From Escherichia coli (GTDB lineage: Bacteria; Pseudomonadota; Gammaproteobacteria; Enterobacterales; Enterobacteriaceae), in NCBI RefSeq assembly GCF_017348835.2, contig NZ_CP071375.1: a stretch of DNA of 64,000 nt, one strand, 5' to 3'. Below are positions 28,690 to 62,819 of this stretch, in pieces. The number at the start of each line of letters is the position of its first letter. Within the stretch, counting starts at the first letter, position 1. The notes below the pieces were generated by a model, which searched no databases, had not been told where the DNA came from, and saw only the letters and a list, made by a program, of their open reading frames with translations. Made by a program: the position numbers and the translations under genes.

Positions 28690-29712
28690 ATGAAAAAAGT
28701 GTTATTGATAATCTTGTTATTGCTGGTGGTACTGGGTATCGCCGCTGGTGTGGGCGTCTGGAAGGTTCGCCATCTTGCCGACAGCAAATTGCTTATCAAA
28801 GAAGAGACGATATTTACCCTGAAGCCAGGGACCGGACGTCTGGCGCTTGGTGAACAGCTTTATGCCGATAAGATCATCAATCGCCCACGGGTTTTTCAAT
28901 GGTTGCTGCGTATCGAACCGGATCTTTCTCACTTTAAAGCCGGGACTTACCGCTTTACACCGCAGATGACCGTGCGCGAGATGCTGAAATTGTTGGAAAG
29001 CGGTAAAGAAGCACAGTTCCCGCTGCGACTGGTAGAAGGGATGCGTCTGAGCGACTACCTCAAGCAATTGCGTGAGGCTCCGTATATCAAGCACACGCTG
29101 AGTGACGATAAGTACGCCACCGTAGCGCAGGCACTTGAACTGGAAAACCCGGAGTGGATTGAAGGTTGGTTCTGGCCAGACACCTGGATGTATACCGCCA
29201 ATACCACCGATGTCGCGTTACTCAAGCGAGCGCACAAGAAAATGGTGAAAGCGGTCGATAGCGCCTGGGAAGGGCGTGCGGACGGTCTGCCTTATAAAGA
29301 TAAAAATCAGCTGGTGACGATGGCATCAATTATCGAAAAAGAAACCGCCGTTGCCAGTGAACGCGATCAGGTTGCCTCGGTATTTATCAACCGTTTACGC
29401 ATTGGTATGCGCCTGCAGACCGACCCAACCGTGATTTACGGGATGGGAGAGCGTTATAATGGCAAACTTTCTCGTGCAGACCTGGAAACGCCGACAGCGT
29501 ATAACACCTATACCATTACCGGTTTGCCGCCGGGTGCGATAGCTACGCCGGGGGCGGATTCGCTGAAGGCTGCTGCGCATCCGGCAAAAACGGCGTATCT
29601 CTATTTTGTGGCCGATGGTAAAGGTGGTCACACGTTTAATACCAATCTTGCCAGCCATAACAAGTCTGTGCAGGATTATCTGAAAGTGCTTAAGGAAAAA
29701 AATGCGCAGTAA
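28690..29712 (+). CDS. mltG: endolytic murein transglycosylase MltG (YceG)
   Basis: 340-aa ORF with N-terminal transmembrane segment, recognised as YceG/MltG. Confidence 0.9.
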
Positions 29713-30343: not shown

Positions 30344-31344
30344 GATGGTATCCATGGTTACGACCTGATTTCGAAAAACTGGTAGCCAGCTATCAGGCCG
30401 GAAGAGGTCACCATGCGCTACTCATTCAGGCGTTACCGGGCATGGGCGATGATGCTTTAATCTACGCCCTGAGCCGTTATTTACTCTGCCAACAACCGCA
30501 GGGCCACAAAAGTTGCGGTCACTGTCGTGGATGTCAGTTGATGCAGGCTGGCACGCATCCTGATTACTACACCCTGGCTCCCGAAAAAGGGAAAAATACG
30601 CTGGGCGTTGATGCGGTACGTGAGGTCACCGAAAAGCTGAATGAGCACGCACGCTTAGGTGGTGCGAAAGTCGTTTGGGTAACCGATGCTGCCTTACTGA
30701 CCGACGCCGCGGCTAACGCATTGCTGAAAACGCTTGAAGAGCCACCAGCAGAAACCTGGTTTTTCCTGGCTACCCGCGAGCCTGAACGTTTACTGGCAAC
30801 ATTACGTAGTCGTTGTCGGTTACATTACCTTGCGCCGCCGCCGGAACAGTACGCCGTGACCTGGCTTTCACGCGAAGTGACAATGTCACAGGATGCATTA
30901 CTTGCCGCATTGCGCTTAAGCGCCGGTTCGCCTGGCGCGGCACTGGCGTTGTTTCAGGGAGATAACTGGCAGGCTCGTGAAACATTGTGTCAGGCGTTGG
31001 CATATAGCGTGCCATCGGGCGACTGGTATTCGCTGCTAGCGGCCCTTAATCATGAACAAGCTCCGGCGCGTTTACACTGGCTGGCAACGTTGCTGATGGA
31101 TGCGCTAAAACGCCATCATGGCGCTGCGCAGGTGACCAATGTTGATGTGCCGGGCCTGGTCGTCGAACTGGCAAACCATCTTTCTCCCTCGCGCCTGCAG
31201 GCTATACTGGGGGATGTTTGCCACATTCGTGAACAGTTAATGTCTGTCACAGGCATCAACCGCGAGCTTCTCATCACCGATCTTTTACTGCGTATTGAGC
31301 ATTACCTGCAACCGGGCGTTGTGCTACCGGTTCCTCATCTTTAA
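30340..31344 (+). CDS. holB: DNA polymerase III delta-prime subunit
   Basis: 334-aa ORF recognised as HolB, including the Cys cluster CGHCRGCQ. Confidence 0.92.
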
Positions 31345-56937: not shown

Positions 56938-56969
56938 TCGAGTTCCACCTTTTTATTCATAAGGCGGGA
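56934..56969 (-). pseudogene. potB: 3'-terminal remnant of potB, cut off by the prophage junction
   Basis: Minus-strand frame ending in TGA that overlaps the potC ATG (ATGA) encodes ...SRLMNKKVELE; this matches my recollection of the PotB C-terminus, and the frame is open for only 37 codons (to 57047) with no membrane-permease body upstream. Confidence 0.45.
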
Positions 56970-57245
56970 CACTTTCAGGTTTTTGAATTTATTCAATTTT
57001 TTCCTTTCTCCAAAATCTCTCCAAAACTTTTCCCCAAAACAGGACCACGCATTTTACAGCATTTTTATACATGGGTGAGCTTACTAGGACAGAAAAGTAT
57101 TCCAGTTTGTTTACCCATATCGCTTTCCGAATGAGATTTTTGATGTGATTTCTTCGTGTTGAAAAACCACATAATGTGGTATTAGAATTAGCTATCAAGA
57201 TTCACTTTGAATCCGTTTTGAATCCCATTGAACTCAGGAGTGACT

Positions 57246-57449
57246 ATGAAGCGTAAAAGTGTGGCTTTGTTACAAGCCATTGGCTCGGTTATAGCCCTGA
57301 GCCCGACGGTCGTTTCAGCAAATGGCATGCCAGCGAATCCAGTTTCCGCTTTGCGTCAGGATGCTGCGGCTATCAGAGGCGATTTCCAAAAAGCAATGGT
57401 ATCCGTTAACGTTGAAAAGCTGAACAATGCCAGATCAAAAAGAAAGTGA
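57246..57449 (+). CDS. small secreted protein, unknown function (prophage cargo)
   Basis: 67 aa, MKRKSVALLQAIGSVIALSPTVVSA is a signal peptide with a likely cleavage site after VSA; AGGAG Shine-Dalgarno 5 nt upstream; the listed ORF starts at an in-frame TTG at 57228. Confidence 0.55.
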   Translation: MKRKSVALLQAIGSVIALSPTVVSANGMPANPVSALRQDAAAIRGDFQKAMVSVNVEKLNNARSKRK

Positions 57450-57534
57450 GAACACCAAACTCACTTGTGAATAACAAAAGGATAATGAACTGGTTTCTCG
57501 AGTAATCGAAAATCCAGAGGTCTTAAACAGGGTT

Positions 57535-57894
57535 TTGGATAGTCCGCAGGTGCGGGCTATTGTTTGCCAGCATTTTCAGGGGCCTGTTCCGCCACCTTCA
57601 ATGCTTAAAAAGTATGATCAACTGGTGCCTGGGCTTGCAAATCGACTTGTTGAGTTGACCGAAAAAGAGCAGGCTCATCGCCATAAAACAGTGGCTGATA
57701 GCATTGATATTGCCAGAGATGGTCAAACAAAGGCTTTTTGGTTGGCAATATTGATCATCTTAGCTGCCACTGTCTTTGGCGTCATGGGGGAGACAGTTCT
57801 TGCCGGAACTCTCGTTTCAATAGATCTTGTTGCATTGGTTACGGCATTTATTGTTGGAAAACATTATTCTAAGCAGGAACCTGATCAAGATTAG
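57535..57894 (+). CDS. DUF2335-like two-transmembrane-helix membrane protein (prophage cargo)
   Basis: N-terminal PVPPPSMLKKYDQLVPGLANRLVELTEKEQAHRH followed by two hydrophobic helices; start uncertain (TTG 57535 or ATG 57601), no strong Shine-Dalgarno. Confidence 0.5.
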   Translation: MDSPQVRAIVCQHFQGPVPPPSMLKKYDQLVPGLANRLVELTEKEQAHRHKTVADSIDIARDGQTKAFWLAILIILAATVFGVMGETVLAGTLVSIDLVALVTAFIVGKHYSKQEPDQD

Positions 57895-57902
57895 TCTCCG
57901 AA

Positions 57903-57925
57903 CCCCGGTTGATGCCGGGGTTTTT
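57903..57925 (+). terminator. rho-independent terminator after the cargo cassette
   Basis: CCCCGG-TTGATG-CCGGGG followed by TTTTT, 9 nt after the stop codon. Confidence 0.8.
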
Positions 57926-57970
57926 ACACTAGCAAAGCAATATCAACATTTTTCAGCTGCATTTATTTCG

Positions 57971-59089
57971 TCAAACAACCAATTTAACCCATTCCTGACC
58001 ACGAGTATCGTTATAACGATCGGTGGTTGCTTGGACTTTATGTCCCAGTAATGTTTTTGTATCAATACCCTGCGCGCGGTACAGTCGTTCTGACAGGGAG
58101 CGTTGTTCATGAAATGTTGGCGGAGTTTTTCCTGCTGGTGGAGTTATCCCAGCCAGATCCCGTGCTTTGGCAAAGTAGTCGCTCAGGTTGTCTTTACTCA
58201 TCGGCTTTGGTTGTTTCTGGTGCCGACTATGGATTAGATATGGACTTAATATTCTGTCTCGGCACCCATCAATAACTTCTTTTAACGTTATCCCAATGGC
58301 ATCACAGCGTAGTGTAAGCGGTAACGCCAGACGCATTCCGGTTTTTCCCTGGGTGATATGCAAGTGTTCGTTCCACACATCTGAAAAACGCATGTGGCAA
58401 ATGTCATCACGGCGCTGACCAGTAACAATCGCAAGAAGCATTGCGTTACGGATAAAGTGTTTTTCAGGCGTTGCGTTGTAAATTTTTTGCCAGTCTTCCA
58501 GGGTGAGCCTGGCTCTAGTTACTTTAGGGATCGGTTTACGGGTAGCCTCCGGAGGATTCCATCCAGGAGGAACTTCCCCTGCATGCTGTGCTTCTTTATA
58601 AATATCAACCCATAATCCACGATTTACTCTCGCTGTGCTGACCATGTCTTTATCCAGCCACTCATCCAGTATTAATGCAAAGTCTCTTACTTCCAGTTCT
58701 TTCAATGGGTGGTTTCCCAGACGGGAAACCAGGTATGCAGCCATTCGGGCTTTTTCTTTGTGAGTTGTAGCTGCAATATCTCCATTTTTCAGTCGCGTGT
58801 CCTGTATTTTCAGATATCGATCAACCCATGCCTTTAATCTGATACCCCGACGCTTTGTTGCTGACGGACTTTCATCAATTTTGCGCATGAAATATTCAGC
58901 CTCTGCTGCAGCTATTCGCTGATTGGCTGTGGAAGCGATTTTTTCTGCCTTACCTTTGTCTGTTCCGAGCCCGTGAAATTTTCCAGTCACAGGGTTTTTA
59001 TACTGGTAGTAAACTCTGCCAGTTCTGCGATCAAATTTTTCGTAAAGTCCGGCTACGTCAGTGCTGTTTTTTCGTGGCCTCGGTGACAT
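57971..59089 (-). CDS. int: phage integrase (tyrosine recombinase, lambda Int family)
   Basis: 372 aa; lambda-Int-like C-terminal catalytic region (VTGQRRDDICHMRFSDV, PPTFHEQRSLSERLY, LLGHK, conserved Tyr in TDRYNDTRGQEW). Confidence 0.9.
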   Translation of the reverse strand: MSPRPRKNSTDVAGLYEKFDRRTGRVYYQYKNPVTGKFHGLGTDKGKAEKIASTANQRIAAAEAEYFMRKIDESPSATKRRGIRLKAWVDRYLKIQDTRLKNGDIAATTHKEKARMAAYLVSRLGNHPLKELEVRDFALILDEWLDKDMVSTARVNRGLWVDIYKEAQHAGEVPPGWNPPEATRKPIPKVTRARLTLEDWQKIYNATPEKHFIRNAMLLAIVTGQRRDDICHMRFSDVWNEHLHITQGKTGMRLALPLTLRCDAIGITLKEVIDGCRDRILSPYLIHSRHQKQPKPMSKDNLSDYFAKARDLAGITPPAGKTPPTFHEQRSLSERLYRAQGIDTKTLLGHKVQATTDRYNDTRGQEWVKLVV

Positions 59090-59336
59090 GAGTTAAAATC
59101 TCCTTCAGTGCATCATCATCGCCAGTATGAATTTCCGGCGCAATTCCTGTTTCACCAGGTCCAACAAATACTGCTCGGCGATCTATCAGCCAACGCCCAC
59201 GAATTTTTTGTGGTCTTGGAACGATGTATCCTAGTTTTCCGTATTTCACCAGGGTAGTGTTTGTTATTGGGAGACTGAACCGTTTTGGCTTCCACTCATC
59301 GAGCGTTATCAGGTACTGTTCGCTCATGGCTATCAC
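59058..59336 (-). CDS. xis: excisionase (Xis)
   Basis: 92 aa; YLITLDEW...GRWLIDRRAV resembles lambda Xis (MYLTLQEW...); 32-nt overlap with the int start as in lambda; start could be Met1 or Met4. Confidence 0.75.
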   Translation of the reverse strand: MIAMSEQYLITLDEWKPKRFSLPITNTTLVKYGKLGYIVPRPQKIRGRWLIDRRAVFVGPGETGIAPEIHTGDDDALKEILTHVTEATKKQH

Positions 59337-59388
59337 TCCGGAACGCGCCAGTTGCAGAATACCAACGACAACTGGCGACGGTTGAACA

Positions 59389-61860
59389 TTAAAAATCAGC
59401 CTGACTCGGGATCAGTTTTTGCCAGATAACTGAAACGTATTTTGCCTGATAACGGGCGTCATCAAGTGCATTATGGCGCTCACCTTCGAATGGAATAGCC
59501 GTTCTGGCATCGAAGTCTATGGCTTTCCCCAGCTCAACGATTGTGCGTACATCGCGATCGTTGTAGTAACGCCACGGGCAGGGGATCCCCTGCCGTTCGT
59601 ATGAACGGCGCAAAATCGTGTTATCGAAGTTGGCTCCATTTCCCCAGACCTGAACAAAAAATTCACCGGAGTTTTCGTCGATAAATTCCCGCAATTGTAA
59701 CAGTGCATCATCTAACGGGATTTCATCGGTCATAATGGCAGATTGCGCTTCGCGTGATTGCTTAAGCCACCATTTAATGGTGTCCCGATCAATGACTCCG
59801 CCAGCAGTTTCCAGATCGATAGTCTTACTAAATTCCGGTCCCATATCTCCGGTTTGCGGATCGAAAAATATTGCACCTATTGAGATGATCGGGGCATCAG
59901 GATTTTTTCCCATGGTTTCAAGGTCGATCATTAGATGGTCACACGTCCTGCTGGTGGATGTGATTTCTTGATGACCGTTCACCTTAATTGAGTGATCTGC
60001 CGTCTCGCCAGTTTCACTATCGCTGGCATGATGCTGATTGCCGCCAGTGTTCTCCTTGTGTGGATGTTCAGCGCCTTCCATTTTCTCCGGATCATCTTCC
60101 TGAACTTCAACCTGATACTCTTCATCGAATGTTTCCTGGTATGTTGCGTCGCCCATCACCGCGCCACAATCAGGGCAGTTGCCGCCGCCGGTCTGACCGC
60201 AGGCGGTGCAGGCTTTTTCCACTTCCTGTTGCGCCACTGGTTCAGGCTGTTTCGTTTCTGGCTCGTTTTGTAACGCATTTGGGCTGTTTTGTTCCGCTTT
60301 TTGGTAGTTCCGTTCCGATTCATGCTGGTTCTGGTTTACAGAATCGCGGGTCTGGATCCCCTTAACCCATTTCGGATCATTCGGGTCGCTAATCCCTGCA
60401 ACAAATTCTCCGCGAGAGGCAGCAAGCAACTTATCGGCGTCAGGCTGGCTGATATTGGCTGCCTGCATAATTTTGTTTACTTCGTCAGCGGTAACTTTTA
60501 CCGGCTCTGGTTGTGCGGTCGTGTCAGATGCACCAGTATTTTGTTGTGAACCTGAGTATGTACTGTTTTTGCGGGCGAAATATTCTTCTTTCGTGATTTC
60601 AGTAGCCCCGGCAGCCAGTGCCTTATCCAGACCAGAAAGTTTGTTTGCGCGACCGTATTTTTCGCCATCCTTGTCGGTGAAGAGGAAGTAGAACGGCCCC
60701 TCACGCTCTACAGATGGTTCGACTTCCACTTTGCATTCGGTTTTTTCGTTGTCCGGAATTGCCGTTTCCACTGCATCAGTTTCTGGTACTGGCGACGAGA
60801 GAGTATCAGTTGCGCTCTGATTTGTTCCTTCATCTTCAAACACGCCCTTTGTAGTCAGGTATTCAGTAATGTATTTGTTCAGTGCCACAGGGTCTTTGTG
60901 AATGTCGATCGGACGTTCACGGACAAGGCCAAAAATAGTCTGGCGGTCGTAGCGAAGGGCATCAGGCTGTTTGCGCATTGATGCCGAGATACGCTTCCAG
61001 TCTTCGCGGTCGTTGTCGATAACTTCATTTTTTGCCCAGCGATGGATGCTGCCGTCAATGTTTCCGGCATCCACATCACCAGGCCAGAGAGCGTAGGCCA
61101 GTTCGTCATCCAGTGTTTTCCATGTCTGCTTGTATTCGCGATGAATGGCAGCAATGACCGGGCTGATTTTTCCTGTTGAATTTTCAGTGTGCTGTTGATT
61201 GGTTCTGGCGCGGGCGAGATCAACAACAGACGTGTATTTTCCGGTTTCCTTGCGTTCACCTTCGCGACGTTTTTTCCAGATGCGCATCTCTGCCTGAATT
61301 TCGGGCCATTTGGCACCAGGCTTACATTTATGCTTAACCCACCCGATGGCATGCAGCTTAAGCTCCGGATACATGGCGTTAACTTCTGGCATTTTCATCA
61401 ACGCTTCAACGATATGTCCGTCGAATGTTGCCATGTCTTCCTGCAACAATTCCTGTGCGCTAATAACCATATCAACGGTGATGTTTTCACATGTGTCGAA
61501 CTTAACCATGACAGCGTTCTGTACTTCAGGGGCCAGCTTGTCAAAAGTGACGTTCATCGGATCTGATTCAGTCTCAACCGGAACAAAGGAAGCAGACTCC
61601 TCATCCCAGCGGTTTTCCTGCATATATTCAGCATCCCATGAATCGAGGGCAGGGCGGGGTATGCCAGGTTTATCCTCGCAGATAATAAATTTATAAGCGC
61701 AGTCCTGAGCAGCCGGATAATGTTCCAGGAATTGCCAGTGAAATTTTGCTCGAGCACGGCGTTCGTCGCCAGCTTCAATAGCTGTGGCTACAGCCACAGC
61801 GCCTTCTTCCCTTGTTGCCAGTTCGTCAGGAATGGCGGCGCAAATAAAGACTTTACTCAT
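59389..61860 (-). CDS. phage exonuclease of the family often annotated exodeoxyribonuclease VIII, with C-terminal DnaQ-like DEDDh 3'-5' exonuclease domain
   Basis: 823 aa; C-terminus carries Exo I (MIDLETMG), Exo II (VWGNGANFDNTIL) and Exo III (HNALDDARYQAKY) motifs; central acidic/Gln-Pro-rich segment with Zn-ribbon-like CTACGQTGGGNCPDCG; sits in the exo/recE slot of a lambdoid early-left operon. Confidence 0.75.
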   Translation of the reverse strand: MSKVFICAAIPDELATREEGAVAVATAIEAGDERRARAKFHWQFLEHYPAAQDCAYKFIICEDKPGIPRPALDSWDAEYMQENRWDEESASFVPVETESDPMNVTFDKLAPEVQNAVMVKFDTCENITVDMVISAQELLQEDMATFDGHIVEALMKMPEVNAMYPELKLHAIGWVKHKCKPGAKWPEIQAEMRIWKKRREGERKETGKYTSVVDLARARTNQQHTENSTGKISPVIAAIHREYKQTWKTLDDELAYALWPGDVDAGNIDGSIHRWAKNEVIDNDREDWKRISASMRKQPDALRYDRQTIFGLVRERPIDIHKDPVALNKYITEYLTTKGVFEDEGTNQSATDTLSSPVPETDAVETAIPDNEKTECKVEVEPSVEREGPFYFLFTDKDGEKYGRANKLSGLDKALAAGATEITKEEYFARKNSTYSGSQQNTGASDTTAQPEPVKVTADEVNKIMQAANISQPDADKLLAASRGEFVAGISDPNDPKWVKGIQTRDSVNQNQHESERNYQKAEQNSPNALQNEPETKQPEPVAQQEVEKACTACGQTGGGNCPDCGAVMGDATYQETFDEEYQVEVQEDDPEKMEGAEHPHKENTGGNQHHASDSETGETADHSIKVNGHQEITSTSRTCDHLMIDLETMGKNPDAPIISIGAIFFDPQTGDMGPEFSKTIDLETAGGVIDRDTIKWWLKQSREAQSAIMTDEIPLDDALLQLREFIDENSGEFFVQVWGNGANFDNTILRRSYERQGIPCPWRYYNDRDVRTIVELGKAIDFDARTAIPFEGERHNALDDARYQAKYVSVIWQKLIPSQADF

Positions 61861-62330: not shown

Positions 62331-62499
62331 TATCGCGCCCTCAACAATGAGTTTTGTGATGCGGTGCCTGGTGCCTCCAGGTGACGTTAACCAGTTAACA
62401 ACTAACGCCGGATACAGAGAATCCAACCATAACACTGTTTTTGGTTTTAACTGTTCCGCGTGCGCTTAGCCGCATTCACCGCATCACAAAATTCACTTT

Positions 62500-62557
62500 A
62501 AAAAGGGCGGCAGAGCAGTCACGGAGTAAAACTGATACCGCCAAACGTCACCAGAAA
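62500..62557 (-). ncRNA. dicF: DicF-type small RNA with 3' terminator
   Basis: Minus strand reads TTTCTGGTGACGTTTGGCGGTATCAGTTTTACTCCGTGACTGCTCTGCCGCCC followed by TTTTT; I recognise this 53-nt sequence as DicF; position immediately upstream of the dicB-like gene fits. Confidence 0.75.
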
Positions 62558-62819
62558 ATTGATAACAGAGGGCGTTGCAGCGGGGTTGTCACTTAAGCGT
62601 ATGGTCAACCTGACAACCCGGTGTCCTCAACGGGGGAAGGAATAACCCCGCCATACTTACCGCCGCGCCATTTCGCGGATTGCCACAACCAGAAGCGCAC
62701 GGTCGAAGAAATTTAACGACAAGACTTATATGCAAAGGGATCTCGCCGTGCGCTTTCGTGTTATGCCCTGACTTTTCAGGGTAAATTAACCTGTGGAAAC
62801 CTGTTTTTACTGGCGCTAA

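Follow-up and report, generated by a model that had tools for sequence, protein, structure and literature searches.

Protective stem-loops of E. coli mark steady-state 3' ends and the borders of operon segments that decay differentially (PMC6061677, PMC5927463). The PeSL cassettes of T4-type phages are intergenic stem-loops at the borders of exchangeable genes, and break points map there (Arbiol et al. 2010, PMC2839356). The mosaic borders of temperate phages bear traces of homologous recombination, with exchange at short conserved patches (PMC3945230). In lambda, the sib / tI structure governs int and xis post-transcriptionally via 3'-5' decay. Some 30 nt ahead of the xis start codon, lambda (29109–29128, minus strand; L300 310–329) and 933W (L212) also share a hairpin of terminator-like form, AAGCCGCC-TGAT-GGCGG, with T6-7 directly behind it.

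Here, we describe a stem-loop ahead of xis in a prophage located within a 64,000-nt stretch of E. coli contig NZ_CP071375.1 (referred to as the window). The kind of element is well known and the hairpin is a further member of it, although we found no description of this hairpin in the literature or in Rfam (searched for an exo-xis stem-loop, EHEC Term-seq at the locus and the Sakai locus tags). As in the protective intercistronic stem-loops, a stable helix without a U-run directly follows a cistron, at a border of segments that are expected to differ in expression; the differences are that it resides in a phage early operon at a joint between modules, is not a REP, and is confined to a single site. 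The hairpin resembles the PeSLs in that a stem-loop motif with G·T pairs lies at the border of exchangeable genes, with recombination break points at that position. The PeSLs, in contrast, come with a strong sigma-70 early promoter and in many copies per genome, whereas the hairpin has no promoter and is found once per prophage, at one junction. Lambda sib, a long substrate of RNase III located downstream of int on the far side of att, promotes decay; the hairpin is upstream of xis, short, and would limit decay. The lambda/933W hairpin occupies the same slot ahead of the xis ribosome-binding site in a leftward early operon and has a similar GC-rich core stem (GCCGCC/GGCGG), but its loop is 4 nt, it is followed by a U-tract, and it scores as an intrinsic terminator, whereas the hairpin of the window belongs to a family with loops of 8–14 nt and no U-tract, and is not called. 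Lambda also has tL3, a characterised terminator downstream of exo, and our scan reports a terminator-like site at lambda 31265–31287.

The right end of the window is a lambdoid prophage, inserted beside potC. The gene exo (59389–61860, minus strand; stop codon at 59389–59391) encodes a protein of 823 aa that ends in a Rv2179c-like 3'-5' exoribonuclease domain (PF16473, C-terminal); this "exonuclease" is not lambda Exo. It is followed on the same strand by xis (59058–59327, minus strand), which encodes an 89-aa lambda-type excisionase (PF07825), and by int (57971–59089, minus strand), which overlaps xis by 32 nt and encodes a tyrosine integrase with a lambda-type arm-binding domain. No promoter-like site separates these genes; a scan of positions 58800–60000 returned none on either strand. 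Counted to the ATG at 59327, the gap between exo and xis is 61 nt long; this start agrees with RefSeq homologues, in which the excisionase is annotated as 270 nt. An earlier note on this DNA gave the gap as 52 bp, a figure that applies solely to a GTG start at 59336.

Upstream of exo are ydfD- and dicB-like ORFs and then DicF, which identifies the prophage as one of the Qin/DicF type. The DicF sRNA is full length (62505–62556, minus strand; Rfam RF00039, 76.7 bits with a gathering score of 48). Adjacent to it, an STnc100-like match (62353–62493, minus strand) scores 37.6 bits, under the threshold for that family (47). About 27 nt upstream of the DicF 5' end, in the transcript sense, there is an inverted repeat with perfect 9-bp arms, GGGTTGTCA-N19-TGACAACCC (62583–62619), which may be linked to DicF processing. 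On the other side of int, the interval to potC (56938–57970) is 1,033 nt long in the window, compared to about 166 nt in Sakai Sp6 and in strain OkiPb01694. The extra DNA contains an ORF on the opposite strand (57535–57894, 119 aa) encoding a DUF2335 predicted membrane protein, followed by a hairpin with a T-run (arms 57901–57908 and 57915–57922); its position beside the attachment site makes this unit resemble a small cargo gene.

In O157:H7 Sakai, this module bears the annotation prophage Sp6, and the copy of the hairpin there is located at about 1,543,142–1,543,173 of NC_002695.2 (minus strand). The Sakai Sp6 exo is cut down to a 345-nt remnant (ECs_1503; L299 3153–3497), with the exo 3' end, hairpin, xis and int intact. 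Term-seq and dRNA-seq datasets exist for this strain (PMC7547250).

The hairpin consists of the inverted repeat CGCCAGTTG-N14-CAACTGGCG, and both reading of the sequence and a repeat finder confirmed the 9-bp stem that the earlier note had placed between the exonuclease gene and xis. The core stem-loop (59346–59377, minus strand) has arms at 59346–59354 and 59369–59377 that are complementary at 9/9 positions (100%) and spaced by 14 nt. The order on the transcribed strand is exo UAA, 11 nt, CGCCAGUUG, the 14-nt loop, CAACUGGCG, 6 nt, GGAG, 8 nt and xis AUG. An extra U·G pair is possible between the first and last loop bases (U at 59368 and G at 59355), and folding predicts a further helix of 2 bp (CG/CG) on the outer side of a 1-nt bulge, which extends the full predicted structure to 59344–59380 (minus strand). 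On its 5' side, the stem is preceded by a conserved linker, TAATGTTCAACC, comprising the exo stop codon and 9 nt (59380–59391, minus strand; 92–100% identical in all junction classes), and a U-rich stretch just upstream of the stem, GAUUUUUAAUGUU, is invariant. On its 3' side, the Shine-Dalgarno sequence of xis (GGAG, 59336–59339, minus strand) is left unpaired.

A 44-nt RNA containing the hairpin is predicted to fold with a ΔG of -18.9 kcal/mol (z = -4.75), and 0/200 shuffles are as stable; this is the fold prediction that the earlier note had proposed as a check, and it bears out the claim of a stable stem. The mean pair probability in a 350-nt mRNA context is 0.94. Folding of the whole 121-nt context gives a z of -0.97, indicating that the folding signal is restricted to the hairpin. 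Perfect inverted repeats of at least 9 nt with loops of 3–20 nt occur 19 times in the window, compared to 3.95 ± 2.1 times in Markov-1 random sequence, so that the chance of one falling in a given 60-nt gap is ~0.004 (about 0.4%), which is unlikely. Just 1.2% of the 45-nt windows in these prophages are as stable as -17.5 kcal/mol or better. Neither flank of the hairpin contains a U/T run (3' flank, CGUUCCGGAGUG), and a terminator scan did not call the site, in keeping with the remark in the earlier note that the stem lacks a U-tract and does not look like a terminator.

Several other identities were considered and rejected. A canonical intrinsic terminator would share the GC-rich stem (9–10 bp, -18.9 kcal/mol), but the U-run is missing, and the plus strand has no T-run that would make the hairpin an antisense terminator. 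The hairpin is too short to be attC-like, and lacks the 5-bp stem and pentaloop of boxB/nut-like sites. A REP/BIME element is rejected since no related copies are found off the junction in 2.3 Mb and there is no Rfam match; other TCGCC...GGCGA hairpins in these 2.3 Mb of related prophage DNA are only unrelated coding palindromes. The Rfam covariance models gave no match at 59300–59420 even at E <= 10. No CII box like that of lambda pI (TTGC-N6-TTGC) was found near the hairpin, and the count of this box in the window is below chance.

Of 5,426 complete E. coli genomes, 4,065 contain the 3' end of exo, frequently in multiple prophages; complete E. coli genomes hold at least 7,982 junctions. For comparison, we assembled 282 exo/xis junctions from IMG/VR and GenBank phages, which represent 47 distinct variants; most of the complete phage-genome records are prophage-derived with host flanks. 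A stem-loop is present in 46 of the 47 variants, always in the same slot. The one variant that lacks it (L239) is also the sole one without xis-int downstream, and a deletion derivative that kept just the last ~40 nt of exo retained the hairpin together with xis-int. Across the variants, the stem starts 9–12 nt past the exo stop and the structure ends at +47 to +50, with predicted ΔG values of -17.5 to -22.4 kcal/mol. The stems are 9–14 bp and the loops 8–14 nt long, and pair probabilities in a 350-nt context range from 0.5 to 0.96 across all junction classes. The end of the stem is 12–28 nt from the xis start codon in all classes, and the Shine-Dalgarno sequence is never inside it. A U-tract is absent from every class. 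Searches for related loci with the Xis alignment recovered identical copies only, and tblastn of the window Xis recovered just the two classes already known.

The slot is occupied by four types of hairpin that are unrelated in sequence. Type I, which includes the hairpin of the window, is CGCC(A/G)GUUG-N14-CAAC(U/C)GGCG. Type II is AUCGCCGCC(C)AC-CAGCUAUA-GUGGCGGCGGU, type III is URAUYGCCGCUAAC-CGYAUAUA-GUUAGCGGCGGUUA, and type IV is GAUCGCCGUC-N13-GGCGGCGGUC. The stems of types II–IV have a common GCCGCC/GGCGGC core with the lambda/933W hairpin. CATG follows directly after the stem in types II–IV, and a conserved mini-ORF (ATG-CTG-TAA) is found right after the 3' arm, at +47 to +55 past the exo stop, in classes D and E (L056, L057 and relatives). 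The four types precede six xis-int modules with three unrelated Xis families (PF07825, DUF1233 and DUF4224), type I being found ahead of PF07825 and DUF1233 Xis, and type II ahead of PF07825, DUF4224 and DUF1233 Xis. The integration sites of these modules also differ, and include potC, tRNA-Ser near mtfA, ompW and the Qin site.

Covariation was analyzed in two separate alignments, one for type I and one for types II–IV, since a joint MAFFT/RNAalifold run misregistered type I and under-called the helix. In type I, 92.2% of cells are paired, compared to 31–45% with the partner slid, and at the fifth stem pair 9 variants have A-U, 5 have G-C and 2 have G·U. In types II–IV, 91.0% of cells are paired and 5 pairs are altered on both sides; the covariation score is 0.314, compared to 0.243 in shuffles, and 0/500 shuffles reach it. 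A minimum-spanning tree of the variants contains 28 substitution events in the stem, of which 20 preserve pairing (14 Watson-Crick to G·U and 6 G·U to Watson-Crick); the remainder are divided equally between A·C and other mismatches (4 each). The pairing is thus conserved, with compensatory changes, in related prophages, where the earlier note had named the lack of such conservation as an outcome that would tell against its proposal. Part of the conservation could reflect mere recent spread. Judging by the compensatory and wobble changes, and by the four unrelated sequences in the slot, the hairpin behaves as a selected structure.

The substitutions also differ between the strands. In the sense strand, 91–92% of cells are paired, compared to 81–84% in the antisense strand. 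The G·U pairs are internal to the helices, and the A·C cells are at helix ends. Changes from Watson-Crick to G·U outnumber those to A·C by 14 to 4 (p = 0.015 in an event test, in which the events are not fully independent since the variants are related by descent and recombination); the corresponding asymmetry at the level of alignment columns is 11 to 5 (p = 0.105). G·T is the best tolerated mismatch in single-stranded DNA hairpins too. We regard the covariation and strand results as moderate evidence, short of decisive, that selection has acted on an RNA structure, or at any rate on one in a single strand with sense polarity.

The junction is also a place where phage sequences change abruptly, a role of the hairpin that the earlier note missed. 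The last 300 nt of exo are 88–99% identical between any two classes and the 12-nt linker UAAUGUUCAACC is 92–100% identical, but identity is at the random level (17–35%) in the 60 nt past the hairpin. The hairpin itself is 71–82% identical between classes with unrelated xis (A/A', C/D, C/F and D/F) and unrelated to the other types, placing the break points at its 3' edge where hairpins are shared or at its 5' edge where they are unrelated. The homology of the window junction to types II–IV stops right after the linker, and types II–IV go with the xis-int side of the junction. Consistent with this, the matches of a BLAST query spanning the junction end at discrete points, including one just before the hairpin and one exactly at its xis-side end. 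Crossovers appear to have occurred within the hairpin as well, as suggested by chimeric hairpins ahead of the same xis that combine the stem base of one type with the loop of another (L228 and L272). Based on these comparisons, we conclude that the hairpin is a mosaic joint where integration modules are swapped, a pattern in agreement with the proposal that short patches of conserved sequence serve for homologous exchange (PMC3945230).

Hairpins in this slot are not restricted to the exo/xis junctions. In K-12, the Rac prophage contains GGGCGUCAAU-N11-AUUGGCGCCU between rcbA and xisR (about 1,413,468–1,413,498 of NC_000913.3, minus strand; L301 1969–1999), a 10-bp stem that includes two G·U pairs, lacks a U-tract and ends 4 nt before the xisR Shine-Dalgarno sequence. 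It has the same architecture and slot as the hairpin of the window, but its sequence is unrelated and the upstream gene, rcbA, is different. We found no description of it, the K-12 3'-end tables (eLife 2021) contain no entry at the xisR/rcbA site, and its relatives are too uniform for an analysis of covariation. ST64B, Flotzy, phiNP, PhiR47_1 and mEp460 have a small conserved hairpin, CCGG-GUGCAG-CCGG, just before the Shine-Dalgarno sequence of the next gene. More distant homologues of the gene with the exonuclease domain (L127 (ST64B), L126, L128, L129 and L130) are followed by (C)CCGG-GTGCAG-CCGG(G), which directly precedes the ribosome-binding site ATGGAGAA of xis or of a PrtN-like gene; the invariant loop of these hairpins suggests sequence-specific recognition. 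BP-4795, SaltyDalty and a Yersinia phage have no hairpin in the slot before xis. Thus, an RNA hairpin upstream of xis, with or without a U-tract, is frequent in lambdoid phages, although not universal.

The reading that we favor, tentatively and with a probability of about 0.4, is that the hairpin acts as a decay boundary, so that the xis-int message and the early-left genes upstream would have separate fates. This action on decay is inferred from the position and the shape of the hairpin. It would be an intercistronic RNA stem-loop on a leftward early transcript through dicB, ydfD, exo, xis and int. The stem would form just past the reach of a ribosome halted at the exo stop, as the constant distance from that codon places it just beyond the terminating ribosome, and would end right before the xis ribosome-binding site. 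Such a helix, stable and lacking a U-tract, could then block 3'-5' exonucleases (PNPase and RNase II) that degrade the distal xis-int segment. Alternatively, or in combination with this exonuclease block, the stem may cap the 5' side of xis-int once an endonuclease has cut the U-rich stretch that precedes the stem. How much xis-int message is present, and how long it lasts, would thereby be set separately from the upstream genes. As the sole constrained non-coding patch between the conserved exo and the divergent xis-int-att modules, the same element would serve as a crossover point. The hairpin agrees with the known protective stem-loops in being a stable stem-loop without a U-run between two cistrons of one transcript, and in having a structure conserved among its homologues. 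Two observations fit the decay boundary less well: the ~17 unpaired nt that cleavage in the U-rich stretch would leave ahead of the stem are a long overhang by the standard of classic 5' protective hairpins, and a hairpin before xis is not universal.

Since lambda and 933W have a hairpin with a U-tract in this slot, transcriptional control is a serious alternative. The hairpin could be a non-canonical pause site or terminator, a U-less relative of theirs that stops or slows unmodified RNA polymerase ahead of xis-int, which would allow excision functions to be expressed only from antiterminated early-left transcription. Types II–IV retain the core of the lambda/933W stem (GCCGCC-TGAT-GGCGG in those phages), and a location directly after a stop codon is typical of terminators. 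Intrinsic termination in E. coli relies strongly on the U-run, however, and none of the classes has one, while loops of 8–14 nt are long for a terminator. We therefore consider this explanation rather unlikely. Cleavage of the early-left transcript by RNase III between exo and xis, in the manner of the T7 intercistronic sites or lambda sib, would suit the intercistronic place in a phage early transcript and the missing U-tract, and the earlier note had proposed it on that basis. RNase III substrates normally span about two helical turns, ~20 bp or coaxial helices, whereas the stems here are merely 9–14 bp with loops of 8–14 nt and no extended flanking helix is predicted, which makes such processing very unlikely. 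The helix might instead serve translation, as an insulator that keeps the xis ribosome-binding site unpaired and independent of upstream sequence, or tunes 30S access. Such a role is suggested by the stem end 12–28 nt ahead of the xis start with the Shine-Dalgarno sequence excluded in all classes, and by the small hairpins directly before the xis Shine-Dalgarno sequence in K-12 Rac and ST64B-type phages, which have other upstream genes. Yet it is the distance to the upstream stop that is nearly constant (9–12 nt), whereas that to the start codon ranges over more than a factor of two, and several relatives have no hairpin; we regard an insulator as quite unlikely.

The remaining alternatives place the function in DNA. 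The hairpin may be a linker without any RNA function, a palindromic patch where homologous or structure-stimulated recombination joins exo to the integration modules. The homology breaks at its 5' or 3' edge and the chimeric hairpins agree with such a linker, as do the T4-type PeSL stem-loops that mediate shuffling at module borders (PMC2839356) and the recombination traces at mosaic borders (PMC3945230). What a crossover requires is sequence identity, without any need for self-complementarity; nevertheless, a helix of much the same length and energy is retained in four unrelated sequences. The compensatory changes, and the G·U pairs within the stems, point to selection for pairing in one strand, and a mere linker is thus unlikely. 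An improbable alternative is that the hairpin is to temperate phages what the PeSL is to T4, a recombination joint that is dedicated to this role and specific for the structure. In that case, a phage nuclease or recombinase, such as the 823-aa exonuclease-domain protein or a factor of the Rap/Orf type, might recognize the extruded or single-stranded stem-loop; crossovers would be targeted there, and whole xis-int-attP cassettes would be exchanged cleanly together with the chromosomal integration site. The other protein-based possibility, raised in the earlier note as a protein-binding site, is an operator in double-stranded DNA for Xis, Int or another DNA-binding protein encoded by the module. 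An inverted repeat that adjoins recombination genes, of which types II–IV travel with the xis-int side, would be a natural place for it. However, the hairpin type does not follow the Xis family (type I is found with two and type II with three unrelated families), the spacing of the arms is 8 nt in some types and 13–14 nt in others that have the same stem base, and the asymmetries between the arms are mainly G·T and not A·C, the internal G·U pairs favoring RNA. An operator is accordingly the most improbable of these explanations.

Overall, the interpretation in the earlier note is partly supported. Its notion of a retroregulation-type element is acceptable if taken loosely, to mean a barrier to 3'-5' decay, but not in any stricter sense. 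Its suggestion that the hairpin could set int/xis expression relative to the early-left transcript is compatible with the location, and the effect itself is what the decay boundary would provide.

The 3' end of exo, with which the hairpin is associated, is carried by Sp6-type and Stx-associated prophages of EHEC, among others, and the stem-loop directly precedes the genes that decide prophage excision. The hairpin gives the exchange of integration modules among lambdoid phages a precise, sequence-defined and conserved "linker", which makes the idea of modular evolution testable at a single joint. Mutating the hairpin and assaying it are straightforward. If the stem does set the level or the lifetime of the xis-int message, it would affect the stability and mobilization of prophages, including those of toxin-carrying phages.
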